A model generated the notes under the pieces. That model was not told where the DNA came from. It saw nothing but the letters and a program-made list of their open reading frames with translations, and did not search any database. This document shows, piece by piece, positions 9,421 to 15,813 of a stretch of DNA of 31,966 nt; the stretch's first letter is position 1, and every line of letters begins with the position of its first letter. Source of the DNA: Verrucomicrobiota bacterium (GTDB taxonomy: Bacteria; Verrucomicrobiota; Verrucomicrobiia; Opitutales; UBA953); the NCBI GenBank assembly GCA_039796215.1, contig JBDKKH010000118.1:1-31966 (forward strand), in the 5' to 3' direction. The translations under genes and the position numbers were made by a program.

Positions 9421-9657
9421 ATGCAGTTCCCCGTCGACCTCGGCGTCTTCCTGGCCTTCCTGGCTGGGCTGACCGTGGTCATCCTGTTCGGGCTGCAGGC
9501 GTGGTATGACCGCCGCGACGTGCTCCTGGCGGATCACCGCCGCATCAACTCCGCCTTCGCCTGCGCCCGTTGCGGCCTGACGTATGTCCGCCCCCGTCGG
9601 CGCGAAGAGGCGGTCTGCCCCGGCTGCGGCTGGAACAATGTTCGCCTCAAGTTCTAA
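9421..9657 (+). CDS. Small membrane-anchored protein with CxxC-x14-CxxC Zn-ribbon-like domain
   Basis: 78 aa; hydrophobic residues ~5-28, then CARC...CPGC; host-like codon usage; fills the gap between the terminator and guaA. Confidence 0.8.
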
Positions 9658-9676
9658 ACTCCCCCATCTTCCTCCC

Positions 9677-11233
<1,557 letters not shown>

Positions 11234-11285: not shown

Positions 11286-12824
11286 GTGTCTGATCCCGGC
11301 TTCCAGGTCATCGCGCGCCGCTGGCGCCCTCGCCGCTTCGACGAACTGGTCGGGCAGGAGCATATCGTCAAGACGCTCCGCAACGCCCTCGAGACGAAGC
11401 GGCTGGCCCATGCCTACCTTTTCGTGGGGCCGCGCGGCACGGGCAAGACCACCACGGCCCGTATCCTCGCCAAAGCGCTGAACTGCGCCGGCGGGCCCAA
11501 GCCGGACTTCTCCCTGGACGACCCGGTCTGCCTCGCCATCGAGCAAGGCAGCTGCCTCGACGTGGTCGAGATCGACGCGGCCTCCAATCGTTCGATCGAA
11601 GACGCCAAGAAGATCCGCGACGAGTGCCAGTTCTCCCCCACGAGCTGCCCCTTCAAGGTCTTCATCATCGATGAAGTACACCAGCTCACCAAGGACGCCT
11701 TCAACGCGCTCCTCAAGACGCTCGAGGAGCCGCCGCCCTGGGTGAAGTTCATCCTGGCGACGACCGAGGCGGACAAGGTCCTGCCCACCATCACGTCGCG
11801 CTGCCAGCGGCTGGAATTCCATCCGATCTCGGAGGAAGTCATCGCCGCCCAGCTCGCCCGCATCGTCAAGGCCGACGGCGTCACCGCCGACCAGCATGCG
11901 CTCACGGCCATCGCCCGCCTGGCCGCCGGCGGGATGCGTGACTCCCAGTCCATCCTCGATCAGGTCATTTCTTTCTCCGGCAAGACCATCGCCGAAGCGG
12001 ACGTGCTGTCGATCTACGGCCTCGCCTCGGCCCAGCAGGTGTCCGACCTCTGCCAAGGCATCGCCGCCGGCGACGGCAAGAAAGTCCTCGGGCTCTGCGA
12101 CGCTTTCCACGCCGAGGGCCGCGACCTCCTTCGCGTGCTGGCGGACCTCCAGGTCCGCGTGCGCACGGCGACGCTCGACTCCGTCCGTTCGGGTGGCGCC
12201 TCGCCCCAGCTCGGCGCCCCGCTCGCGACCGAACAGCTCGTCCGCTTGCTGGAATGCCTCCAGGAGGGGGAGAACGGCATCCGCCAAGGCCTTTCGCCTC
12301 GCGCTAACTTCGAGGTCACGCTCCTCAAGGCGATCGAGCAAAGCCGGTCTAGGTCGATAGACCTTCTCATCAAAGACATCGCCGCCGCCGCAGCTGGTCT
12401 CCCTCGGGAGCCCGGCCAAAAAAAAATAAGGACCCCGGCGACCGCTCCGACGGAGCCTGAGGCCTCGCCGGCGACGCCGGTCGAAACGCCGGCGCCCCGC
12501 CTGCCGGCGCCCCTTCGCGTCGTCGACGTGCCGGTGGAGGACACGGTTGCGTTCGAGGAATCCCTGCCGCCGCTCGATGCCGAGGCCGCGGAAGCGGAGG
12601 CCGCGCAATCAGACCGCCGCGAGACTTTCGTCTTCCCTGACGCGGAGCTGGCCGGCCTGCCGGTCGCCGAAGTCGGCAAGACCGCCTTTCCGGGCGACAA
12701 GGAATTCCAGGAGGCCGTCGACGCGCTGCCGCCCGGCCTGAGGCAGAAGCTGAAGGATACCATCGGCGCGGATTTCACGGCTTTGCGTCCCGTCCCGGCC
12801 GGCAAGCTGCGTCGCCCGCTCTGA
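11286..12824 (+). CDS. dnaX: DNA polymerase III subunit tau/gamma
   Basis: [74 protein letters not shown]; GTG start. Confidence 0.98.
   Translation: MSDPGFQVIARRWRPRRFDELVGQEHIVKTLRNALETKRLAHAYLFVGPRGTGKTTTARILAKALNCAGGPKPDFSLDDPVCLAIEQGSCLDVVEIDAASNRSIEDAKKIRDECQFSPTSCPFKVFIIDEVHQLTKDAFNALLKTLEEPPPWVKFILATTEADKVLPTITSRCQRLEFHPISEEVIAAQLARIVKADGVTADQHALTAIARLAAGGMRDSQSILDQVISFSGKTIAEADVLSIYGLASAQQVSDLCQGIAAGDGKKVLGLCDAFHAEGRDLLRVLADLQVRVRTATLDSVRSGGASPQLGAPLATEQLVRLLECLQEGENGIRQGLSPRANFEVTLLKAIEQSRSRSIDLLIKDIAAAAAGLPREPGQKKIRTPATAPTEPEASPATPVETPAPRLPAPLRVVDVPVEDTVAFEESLPPLDAEAAEAEAAQSDRRETFVFPDAELAGLPVAEVGKTAFPGDKEFQEAVDALPPGLRQKLKDTIGADFTALRPVPAGKLRRPL
12406..12471 (+). other. Putative programmed frameshift / transcriptional slippage cassette in dnaX
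   Basis: GGGAG (12406-12410), A9 run (12418-12426), TAA in the +1 frame (12427), TGA in the -1 frame (12458), stem CCGGCGA/TCGCCGG (12435-12441/12465-12471) enclosing GCTCC/GGAGC. Confidence 0.8.
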
Positions 12825-12826
12825 CC

Positions 12827-13285
12827 GTGGACGTCGCGCGCGAGATCGGCGTCATTTCCGACACGCACGGGCGCCTGCGCGCCGAGGCCGTGCTCGCTCT
12901 GACCGGCTGCGACATGATCATCCACGCGGGGGATGTCTGCGGTCCGCTGATCATCCCTCAGCTCGCCGAAGTGGCGCCCTGCCACGCCGTCGCCGGCAAC
13001 TGCGATGACGACGACACGTTGCCGCTCACCTGCCTGCAGGTGGTCGGCGGCCTGCGTGTCCTCGTCCACCATGGGCACCTGCCGGTCGACGAAGTCACGT
13101 TCCGGCCTGATGTCGTGATCACGGGGCACACGCATATCCCCAGGATCGAACAGGAAGGCGCCCTGCTAAGGCTCAACCCGGGCAGCGCCGGCCCTCGTCG
13201 ATTTAATCTTCCCGTGACGGTCGCCCGCATTACGGTGCGGCAGGGCAGGGCGAGCGCCCGCCTCATCACCCTCGACGTCCCATGA
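12827..13285 (+). CDS. YfcE/MJ0936-family calcineurin-like metallophosphoesterase
   Basis: Motifs ISDTHG, HAGD, GNCD, HHGH, GHTH, NPGSAG; GTG start 2 nt after the dnaX stop. Confidence 0.92.
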   Translation: MDVAREIGVISDTHGRLRAEAVLALTGCDMIIHAGDVCGPLIIPQLAEVAPCHAVAGNCDDDDTLPLTCLQVVGGLRVLVHHGHLPVDEVTFRPDVVITGHTHIPRIEQEGALLRLNPGSAGPRRFNLPVTVARITVRQGRASARLITLDVP

Positions 13286-15813
13286 AGCAGCCTCTGCCCA
13301 TCGATGCTTTGCAGGACGGGCTCGTCGCCGCCTGCGGTCGCGTCCGCCGGCTGGTGCTCCGCGCGCCGACCGGTTCGGGCAAGTCCACCCGTATCCCGCA
13401 GATGCTTCTGGATCTGGACCTCGTGCAGGGGCAGATCATCGTCCTCCAGCCCCGCCGTATCGCGGCTCGTCTGCTGGCGGCCCGCATCGCCCAGGAACGC
13501 GGCGTGCGCCTCGGGGGGGAAGTCGGCTATCAGATCCGCTTCGAGCGCGTGGAGTCGGCCCAGACGAGGATCAAATTCGTGACGGAGGCCTTGCTGCTCC
13601 GTCAGATGGCTTCGGACCCGGGGCTCAAGGGCGTGGGGGCCGTGGTGTTCGATGAGTTCCATGAGCGTAACCTGCACTCCGACGTGGCCCTCGCGCTCGC
13701 GCGCCGCCTGCAGGAGACGCACCGCCCGGACCTGCTGATCATGGCGATGTCCGCGACCCTCGACACGGAAGGCGTGGCGAAGTGGCTCGGTTCGGCCGAG
13801 ACGCTGGCCGCCGACGGTCGCGCGTATCCGGTCCAGGTCGAGTACACGCACCTGCCGCGCAATTCGACCCGGCCGATCTGGGACGCCGCCGCCGAACAGG
13901 TCCGCCGTGTCCTCCGGGAGGAAGCCGAAGGCGACATCCTGGTCTTCATGCCCGGCTCCTATGAGATCATGCGGACCATCGGGGCGGTGCGCAATCTGCC
14001 GGAGTCCGGTGGCGTCGACATCCTGCCGCTCTACGGTGAGCTGCCTCCGGAAGAGCAGGACCGGGCGGTCAAGCCGAGTCCCGGGCGTAAGGTCATCGTG
14101 GCGACTAACGTCGCCGAGACCTCGCTGACCATCCCCGGGGTCCGCGCGGTGGTCGACGCCGGCCTGGCCCGCATCGCGCGCTTCGATCCGCATCGCGGGA
14201 TCGACACATTGCTCGTCGAGCCGGTCTCGCAGGCTTCCGCCGAACAGCGCGCCGGCCGCGCCGGCCGTACCGGCCCCGGCCGTTGTATCCGCCTCTGGTC
14301 GCAGACCGACCATGAAGCGCGGCCGCCGCGTGAAGTCCCCGAAATCAAGCGGGTCGACCTTTCGGAGACGATCCTGCTGCTGCTTTCGTCCGGCTGGGGC
14401 GAAGCGACGACTTTCCCTTGGTATGAGAAGCCGGATGACAAAGCCTTGCTGCGCGCGCTGACCGTCCTCGCCGATCTCGGCGCCGTCGACGCCCATGGTC
14501 GGCTCACGGCCCTCGGCCGGCGGATGTCGGTCTTCCCGGCTCATCCGCGTTACGCGCGGATGCTGCTCGCGGCGGGCGAACTCGACTGCGTCCATGAGGT
14601 CTGCCGTATCGCCGGGCTAGCCCAGGGACGGGATATCCTTTTCCGGAAGGTCGATGACCGCACCGAGAACGCCCGCGACTCGGTCGAGCAGGAAGACGGC
14701 TCCGACTTCTTCCCGCGGCTGGCGCTCCTCCGGCGCGCGGTCGAGATGAAGTTCGACGCCGACGCCTGCGATCGCTTCGGCGTTCACGGACAGGCCGCCC
14801 GGCAGGCCGATCAGGCCGCCCGGCAATTCCTTCGGCTCGCCGAAGGGCAGGGGTTGCCCGTCAGCGACCGGGTCTCCGACCCTGCCGCCGTCCGTCGTTG
14901 CCTGCTGCTGGGCTTCTCTGACCGCCTCGCGGTGAGGCTCGACGCCGGCACGCTGCGCTGCGCGCTCGTCCATGGACGCACCGGCGAACTGCGCCGGGAG
15001 TCCGCCATCCGTAACGCCAAGCTCCTGGTCGCCGCCGAGGTCGACGAGATCCAGGCGCGGGGAGGCGTCACGACCTACCTCTCCTTGGCGACCGCCGTCG
15101 AAGAGTCATGGCTGCAGGAACTTTTCCCCGCGGATTTCTCGACGGTCCGCCAAGTCCGTTACGACGCTTCGCAGCGTCGCGTGGTCACGCGCGTCGAACG
15201 CCGTTTCCGCGACCTCGTGCTTGAAGCGAAGGAGAGAGACGACGCGCCTTCCGACGCCGCCAGCCGCCTGCTCGCGGAAGAGGTCGCCGCCGGACGTCTT
15301 GAGTTGGAGCAGTGGGGCGCTCCCGTCGACGCGTGGATCCGCCGCGTCAATTTCCTCGCGAAGCACTGTCCGGAGCTGGGCATCCCTCCTTTCGATGAAG
15401 CGGCGCGGAGGATGGTCATCGAAGAAGTCTGCGCCGGCGCGGTCGCCTACCGCGATATCCGTGAACGTCCGGTCTTCGGGGTCGTCCGCGGATGGCTTTC
15501 CCACGAGCAGGCCATGGCGCTTGAGTCCTATTGCCCCGAGAAGATCGTGCTGCCGCGCAAGAAGCACCCGGCCCGGATCGAATACACGGAAGACGGGCAG
15601 GCCGAGGTCGAGGCCACGGTGCAGGAACTTTACGATTTCCCCGGCAGCAAGCTGCGCGTCTGCCTCGGCAAGGTGCCGATGGTTGTCTGCATCCAGTCGC
15701 CGGCGCGTCGCACCCAACAACGCACCACCGACCTGGACGCCTTCTGGAAGGGCTCCTACGAAGGCGTGAAGAAGGAGCTGCGCGGCCGTTACCCCAAGCA
15801 CGAATGGCGCTGA
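13282..15813 (+). CDS. hrpB: ATP-dependent helicase HrpB
   Basis: APTGSGKST, QPRRIAAR, DEFHER, MSAT, ATNVAETSLTI, QRAGRAGRTGPG; C-terminal FWKGSY...ELRGRYPKHEW typical of HrpB. Confidence 0.96.
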   Translation: MKQPLPIDALQDGLVAACGRVRRLVLRAPTGSGKSTRIPQMLLDLDLVQGQIIVLQPRRIAARLLAARIAQERGVRLGGEVGYQIRFERVESAQTRIKFVTEALLLRQMASDPGLKGVGAVVFDEFHERNLHSDVALALARRLQETHRPDLLIMAMSATLDTEGVAKWLGSAETLAADGRAYPVQVEYTHLPRNSTRPIWDAAAEQVRRVLREEAEGDILVFMPGSYEIMRTIGAVRNLPESGGVDILPLYGELPPEEQDRAVKPSPGRKVIVATNVAETSLTIPGVRAVVDAGLARIARFDPHRGIDTLLVEPVSQASAEQRAGRAGRTGPGRCIRLWSQTDHEARPPREVPEIKRVDLSETILLLLSSGWGEATTFPWYEKPDDKALLRALTVLADLGAVDAHGRLTALGRRMSVFPAHPRYARMLLAAGELDCVHEVCRIAGLAQGRDILFRKVDDRTENARDSVEQEDGSDFFPRLALLRRAVEMKFDADACDRFGVHGQAARQADQAARQFLRLAEGQGLPVSDRVSDPAAVRRCLLLGFSDRLAVRLDAGTLRCALVHGRTGELRRESAIRNAKLLVAAEVDEIQARGGVTTYLSLATAVEESWLQELFPADFSTVRQVRYDASQRRVVTRVERRFRDLVLEAKERDDAPSDAASRLLAEEVAAGRLELEQWGAPVDAWIRRVNFLAKHCPELGIPPFDEAARRMVIEEVCAGAVAYRDIRERPVFGVVRGWLSHEQAMALESYCPEKIVLPRKKHPARIEYTEDGQAEVEATVQELYDFPGSKLRVCLGKVPMVVCIQSPARRTQQRTTDLDAFWKGSYEGVKKELRGRYPKHEWR

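Follow-up and report, generated by a model that had tools for sequence, protein, structure and literature searches.

A conserved run of nine A's in dnaX of a freshwater Verrucomicrobiota lineage as a probable site of transcriptional slippage giving gamma

The dnaX gene of an uncultured Verrucomicrobiota bacterium (Opitutales, UBA953; assembly GCA_039796215.1, contig JBDKKH010000118.1) lies within a stretch of 31,966 nucleotides (nt), which we analysed whole and call the window. Where the sequence for the gamma subunit should end and that for the longer tau subunit goes on, the gene carries nine consecutive A's, the A9 run. We read this run as a Thermus-type programmed transcriptional slippage site that gives gamma, and from comparison of sequences we set the probability of this reading at about 0.75. 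The A9 site is real and selected: run and adjoining stop codon are strictly conserved in the genus, nucleotide constraint extends over the run, its stop and a hairpin just upstream, and sister lineages have switched the frame in which tau continues behind the same run.

The A9 run and its reading frames

Two NCBIfam profiles identify the dnaX product, both over cut-off (NF004046, 405 bits; TIGR02397, 381 bits), and it matches the Pfam families DNA_pol3_delta2, DNAX_ATPase_lid and DNA_pol3_gamma3. Pfam domain III spans residues 236-352, and the A9 run, at codons 378-380, comes just after it; an initial annotation of this DNA, which had set the run behind the collar domain and ahead of a Pro/Ala linker, was right in this respect. 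The features on which the argument turns are the following.

11286-12824, + strand: dnaX, full-length tau open reading frame (ORF), GTG start, 512 amino acids (aa); from the ORF list and translation
12393-12416, + strand: conserved hairpin, 5+4 base pairs (bp), 1x1 internal loop, CUCG loop, ending 1 nt before the run; candidate nascent-RNA slippage stimulator
12418-12426, + strand: A9 slippage-prone run (CAA AAA AAA A); from sequence and conservation
12427-12429, + strand: TAA of the +1 frame, overlapping a rare tau-frame ATA Ile codon; from frame translation
11286-12429, + strand: predicted gamma, codons 1-380 (...PGQKK) and then TAA, via A8 or A11 mRNA; from three-frame translation
12458-12460, + strand: TGA of the -1 frame, ending a 391-aa product (...QKKNKDPGDRSDGA) from A10 mRNA or a -1 ribosomal shift
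12430-12824, + strand: tau-only C-terminal region of about 131 aa, a Pro/Ala-rich linker and then a conserved tail; from translation

Across the run the dnaX frame reads CAA AAA AAA ATA AGG, with coordinates and codons exactly as first annotated. The +1 frame ends at once (...AKKK*) on the directly adjoining TAA, and the -1 frame continues as ...KKNKDPGDRSDGA* to a stop 11 codons on; these translations reproduce both alternative endings that had been proposed, 380 aa at TAA 12427 and 391 aa (NKDPGDRSDGA at its end) at TGA 12458. The heptamer A_AAA_AAA, which the initial annotation had placed at 12419-12425, is present and in phase. Unlike the two-ORF layout described below, in which the zero frame closes after the run, tau here stays in frame for 132 further codons. 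The tau-only tail has no Pfam match, even at E = 10.

The run is made of codons that this genome disfavours. At a genomic G+C content of about 66%, lysine is written AAA in 15.6% of cases (AAG in 84%), glutamine CAA in 13.8% (CAG in 86%) and isoleucine ATA in 1.2%, and the four codons at the site would occur together with a probability of about 4e-5 under the genome's own usage, which bears out the claim that they go against its preference. It is the sole A/T homopolymer of at least 9 nt in the 1.61-Mb assembly, which has three A/T runs of 8, at C10:6581-6588, C47:8290-8297 and C251:555-562. Because base composition alone predicts about 0.26 A/T runs of at least 9 genome-wide, the evidence resides in the position and conservation of the A9 run, not in its mere existence. 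An assembly error, which the initial annotation had named as a possible source of the run, is excluded, since A9 is found for this species in assembled contigs from two DNA sequencing runs (X23, and X25 from a separate study), and likewise in 62 of 64 genomes among the more than 60 assemblies of the genus.

Conservation of run, stop and frame

We gathered dnaX loci from the genus, order, class and phylum and sorted them by the length of the run and by how far off the next stop lies in each frame; alignment A1 omits L071, whose contig ends inside the run, and L104, which is in another register. Among unique genomes of the genus with a readable site, 62/64 have exactly A9, then TAA or TAG, with tau in frame. 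This fixity holds at a protein identity of 70-90% and in DNA that diverges freely just 3' of the run. The closest relatives are metagenome-assembled genomes (MAGs) of Opitutales/Opitutia (Verrucomicrobiota) from freshwater lakes and rivers.

The two alternative frames are not conserved alike. A +1-frame stop, TAA or TAG, adjoins the run in 62/62 genomes and is thus invariant; by contrast, the -1 stop lies anywhere from 6 to 292 codons away (at most 40 codons in 56/62, 66-292 codons in 6/62). The initial annotation had proposed checking orthologues for the A run and the out-of-frame stops; the run and the +1 stop are conserved, the -1 stop is not. Because the invariant stop is the one that A8 and A11 mRNAs would reach, while the -1 stop drifts, the asymmetry points to transcriptional slippage. 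The broader proposal of a recoding site at the gamma/tau boundary, predicting a product of about 380 aa beside the 512-aa tau, is supported by the same conservation.

Constraint shows at the nucleotide level as well. Third-position diversity over codons 322-333, which hold hairpin and run, is 0.131, where the gene as a whole averages 0.46, and this is below every one of the 310 upstream windows (minimum 0.279). We consider it highly improbable that the run is an incidental Lys-rich linker or a DNA-level phase-variable tract, with tau alone being made. Such an account can draw on two exceptions in the genus, L076 (DKND01000007, UBA7397) with A10 and L074 (SYID01000205) with A11, both with tau out of frame, by which run length can vary in DNA or be mis-assembled; the longer runs reflect either a true change of length in the DNA, of the kind seen in phase variation, or a mis-assembled homopolymer. 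Against it stand the fixation of A9 plus stop in 62/64 genomes despite usage of 84% AAG and 1.2% ATA, synonymous variation that is the lowest in the gene, and the retention of the site across the whole order even where it splits the gene.

In DNA run X25, summed contig depth over positions 12376-12443 climbs to about 700 across some 60 nt that include hairpin and run, whereas the flanks have about 145-165, and loose ends near the run continue into what lies downstream in other members of the genus. Many strains that occur together are therefore identical over this short stretch and diverge right after it.

Beyond the genus, other families of Opitutales carry A9-A13 at the same codon in 47/47 genomes, 323-337 codons past the Walker A motif. 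Behind the run, tau continues in the -1 frame in 27 of these genomes, in the +1 frame in 10 and in the 0 frame in 7. In most, the zero frame closes 4-5 codons past the run and the tau tail goes on in another frame, a two-ORF layout seen in 37-40 of the 47 genomes sampled. Antonov et al. (2013) reasoned that where shifts in both directions occur at one site, transcriptional realignment is to be inferred over ribosomal frameshifting (PMC3711429); by this criterion, transcriptional realignment is indicated here, since tau follows the run in the -1 frame in some sister lineages and in the +1 frame in others. In three of the two-ORF genes (L089, L104 and L102), neither alternative frame meets a stop for 79-166 codons past the run.

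A run of at least 9 is found at the site in 0/15 genomes from other orders of the class and in 15/40 genomes from other classes of the phylum. Several Verrucomicrobiota dnaX genes that have no A run have C runs instead, located past domain III in the Pro-rich linker: C8-C10 in L136, L138, L150, L153 and L176, and C16 plus C34 in L182, whose contig ends there. These linker C runs may be prone to slippage or to assembly breaks.

The adjoining hairpin and the RNA contigs

We infer a slip during transcription, a part for the hairpin, and two proteins together with the proportion in which they are made. On the favoured reading, RNA polymerase crossing the run would hold a 9-bp rA:dT hybrid able to realign, giving mRNAs with varied run lengths. 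Messages with A9 (or A12) would encode full-length tau of 512 aa; those with A8 or A11 would bring the adjoining TAA into frame and yield gamma of 380-381 aa (...GQKK(K)); and A10 messages would yield the 391-aa variant that stops at TGA 12458. Gamma would retain the three clamp-loader domains and be without the tau-only tail. The hairpin, 1 nt 5' of the run at the hybrid edge, may raise the rate of slippage and may bias it to the loss of one A.

This hairpin, GCUGG-U-CUCC [CUCG] GGAG-C-CCGGC, is predicted in 61/61 unique genus sequences and in dnaX genes of the A9-TAR type from other families (L027, L089, L091, L093 and L094). In an alignment of 17 sequences, 90.6% of cells retain pairing, compared with 14-58% when the partners are slid. 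Two pairs show double changes, one of them G-C to A-U in at least two lineages, and the mismatch is replaced by A-U or C-G in other lineages; the covariation score was equalled by 1/500 shuffles, in sequences that are related and a region that is coding.

Only 4-7 nt separate the end of the hairpin from the P-site codon, so that it would be unfolded inside a ribosome decoding the run. From the RNA 3' end it is 9-10 nt away, which equals the span of the RNA:DNA hybrid in RNA polymerase, and in that enzyme it would form at the upstream edge of a 9-10-bp hybrid that is all A:T. By analogy with established structures, a hairpin so placed would have the geometry of an intrinsic terminator, and it may stimulate slippage.

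At the RNA level, we compared two metatranscriptome and several metagenome runs that contain this stretch, as assembled contigs. In metatranscriptome run X2, the sole contig across the site is A8, one A fewer than in the gene (835 nt, depth about 7, one other mismatch); metatranscriptome run X1 gives an A9 contig. An A8 message would stop at the adjoining TAA and give the 380-aa gamma, which fits the invariant +1 stop. We take the A8 contig as a hint only of transcriptional slippage.

Several points weigh against slippage or against a part for the hairpin in it. The stability of the hairpin is ordinary for its composition (z of about +0.4), and it overlaps conserved codons (AGLPREPG). The lineages that bear it may be one clade, and the covariation evidence is modest, kin not being independent. 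Elsewhere in the phylum, A9 sites in dnaX have no hairpin at such a distance. The heptamer A_AAA_AAA is in phase for a -1 shift, and ribosomes, too, can shift or slide on A runs. Further, the A8 sequence is one assembled contig from a reverse transcription-polymerase chain reaction (RT-PCR) library, from a sample with no matched DNA run, and could come from slippage by reverse transcriptase or in PCR, or from a strain whose genome has A8; run X1, also from RNA, shows A9.

We also considered the upstream hairpin as a general trait of poly-A dnaX sites and rejected this, since in two-ORF Opitutales and in other classes the predicted hairpins vary or are distant, with z near 0. The hairpin claim is therefore restricted to the A9-TAR type. 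Within that type, hairpin, A9 and adjoining stop may form a three-part cassette in which the hairpin would drive efficient, deletion-biased slippage (A9 to A8) and gamma would come mainly from A8 messages; we put this more specific proposal forward tentatively, as the less probable form of the idea.

Ribosomal alternatives and known slippage systems

The initial annotation had described a complete recoding cassette with hallmarks of both ribosomal frameshifting and transcriptional slippage. Its ribosomal half corresponds to a -1 shift of the E. coli type on A_AAA_AAA, helped by pairing of GGGAG with the anti-Shine-Dalgarno (anti-SD) sequence and by a downstream stem-loop, and ending at TGA 12458 with a 391-aa gamma. 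Two features enter here.

12406-12410, + strand: GGGAG, the proposed internal Shine-Dalgarno (SD) sequence; codons CGG GAG, with G12407-G12410 as the 3' strand of the hairpin's inner stem
12435-12484, + strand: GC-rich downstream stem-loops, the proposed 3' stimulator; predicted fold, judged no feature

A downstream stem-loop is indeed predicted from about 12435, but its stability is at chance level and it is not conserved. The segment 12427-12486 folds to a minimum free energy (MFE) of -25.2 kcal/mol, with z = -0.64 against dinucleotide shuffles, and for the 60 nt that follow the run, 61 unique orthologues give a mean z of -0.34 and differing structures, with neither excess stability nor a common fold. 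We therefore rejected the stem-loop as a frameshift stimulator.

GGGAG is likewise present where it had been noted, ending 8 nt 5' of the heptamer, but a role as SD is unsupported. It is conserved in the genus as R-E codons paired in the hairpin, and it is missing from other Opitutales families that have the run, which read GAAGAAGCC, GAGGATGCC and so on. We regard it as an unlikely internal SD since it is unconserved beyond the genus, is accounted for by codons plus hairpin, and lies in a genome with no SD peak: before the starts of 833 long ORFs (crude starts, taken at the first ATG), SD-like motifs show a flat 1-2% at each position from -60 to -4. This agrees with the earlier view that the organism makes little use of SD sequences. 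The 16S 3' end is nonetheless in the assembly (C159:29875-29925) with canonical GGATCACCTCCTT and the anti-SD CCUCC.

The E. coli-type shift thus has in its favour a heptamer in phase, GGGAG at 8 nt with an anti-SD to match, and a -1 stop that is close in most of the genus. It is set back by a downstream structure no better than shuffles, by a GGGAG that codons and hairpin arm explain and that other families with the run do without, by a -1 stop that recedes in six genomes while the +1 stop is invariant, and by sister lineages with tau in either frame. Further, the genome has tRNA-Lys genes with both UUU and CUU anticodons, hence two tRNA-Lys species, and in E. coli A_AAA_AAA is a far weaker ribosomal shift site than A_AAA_AAG (PMC5009743). 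With no conserved 3' hairpin, a GGGAG that is a hairpin arm and a drifting -1 stop, the data do not support a complete -1 frameshift cassette of the E. coli type, and we regard this mechanism as unlikely.

The gene nevertheless resembles E. coli dnaX in its product logic, its in-phase A-rich heptamer and its upstream GGGAG. The E. coli site combines A_AAA_AAG, an internal SD and a 3' stem-loop; the site analysed here differs in having A_AAA_AAA, no conserved 3' stem-loop, a GGGAG unconserved outside the genus, an unconserved -1 stop and two tRNA-Lys species.

Ribosomes might instead make a +1 or -2 shift, or slide on the poly-A run, without dedicated stimulators and terminate at the adjoining TAA. 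Ribosome sliding on lysine poly-A is established, and nine A's are short for efficient sliding. The invariance of precisely the +1-frame stop is what such sliding would call for, and PMC5009743 documents realignment of ribosomes on A runs. However, sliding leaves the conserved upstream hairpin unexplained, since a ribosome on the run would keep it unfolded, and the A8 contig from run X2 speaks for an event in the RNA. We consider it quite improbable.

Transcriptional slippage, the reading we prefer, has a close precedent. In Thermus (Larsen et al. 2000, PNAS 97:1683, as reported in PMC1088944 and PMC5009743), dnaX transcription slips, and these two sources describe for T. thermophilus an A9 run, near stops in both other frames, mRNAs of varied run length and about 50% gamma. 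The gene described here shares with it a sense-strand A9 at the gamma/tau boundary, tau in one ORF, near stops in both other frames and a GC-rich genome that otherwise avoids such runs. It differs in belonging to another phylum, in the position of the run (about three-quarters through the gene rather than seven-eighths), in a stop that adjoins the run and perhaps in the conserved hairpin 1 nt upstream; slippage here is a prediction.

Within the order, Antonov, Coakley, Atkins, Baranov and Borodovsky (2013; NAR 41:6514, PMC3711429) reported, from 12 genera, dnaX genes with A10 and two ORFs, for which they predicted transcriptional slippage, and their Supplementary Figure S3 includes the A10 dnaX of Coraliomargarita akajimensis (Opitutales). 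The initial annotation's statement that such a site had not been described in this lineage is thus true only in a narrow sense. Those 'reversed' genes and ours have in common the gene, codon position, bacterial order and predicted mechanism, and differ in that here tau is in frame and gamma needs the slip, in a single-ORF A9-TAA state.

For the hairpin, the nearest parallel is the Roseiflexus IS630 transposase, where, according to a figure legend (PMC5009743, reference 99, Figure 18 legend), a nascent-RNA stem-loop 5' of the motif favours forward realignment with loss of a nucleotide. In both systems a stem-loop precedes the slippage motif directly on its 5' side, where the RNA:DNA hybrid has its edge, and forward realignment agrees with the invariant +1 stop and the A8 contig seen here. 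The Roseiflexus motif is a U5C4 heteropolymer in a mobile element; ours is a homopolymer within an essential gene of the chromosome, next to a hairpin whose role is putative. To our knowledge, stem-loop-stimulated transcriptional slippage has so far been shown only in that Roseiflexus insertion sequence.

As for the surroundings of dnaX, guaA (9584-11233) lies upstream, and a Metallophos_2 phosphoesterase (12827-13285, after a 2-nt gap) and an HrpB-type DEAH helicase (13282-15813, with a 4-nt overlap) follow. The usual ybaB-recR genes are absent after dnaX in the window (12827-15813).

The basic phenomenon is established (Thermus, 2000) and was already predicted for Opitutales (2013). What we add is the A9-TAA state fixed across a genus, the switching of the in-frame product across the order, the asymmetry of the +1 and -1 stops, and a conserved adjoining hairpin with a first hint from RNA. 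The gene is a well-conserved natural case of gamma and tau from one gene via poly-A slippage, as we read it, in a common freshwater Verrucomicrobiota lineage, and the repeated switching of tau among the 0, -1 and +1 frames behind the same run in one order is strong comparative evidence for slippage at the level of RNA polymerase. For annotation, it means that relatives with the two-ORF layout will be wrongly called pseudogenes or truncated genes. The adjoining hairpin offers a testable lead on what determines the efficiency of slippage, a matter for which few such signals are known; if true, hairpin-driven conversion of A9 to A8 would be a case of stem-loop-stimulated transcriptional slippage within an essential gene of the chromosome.

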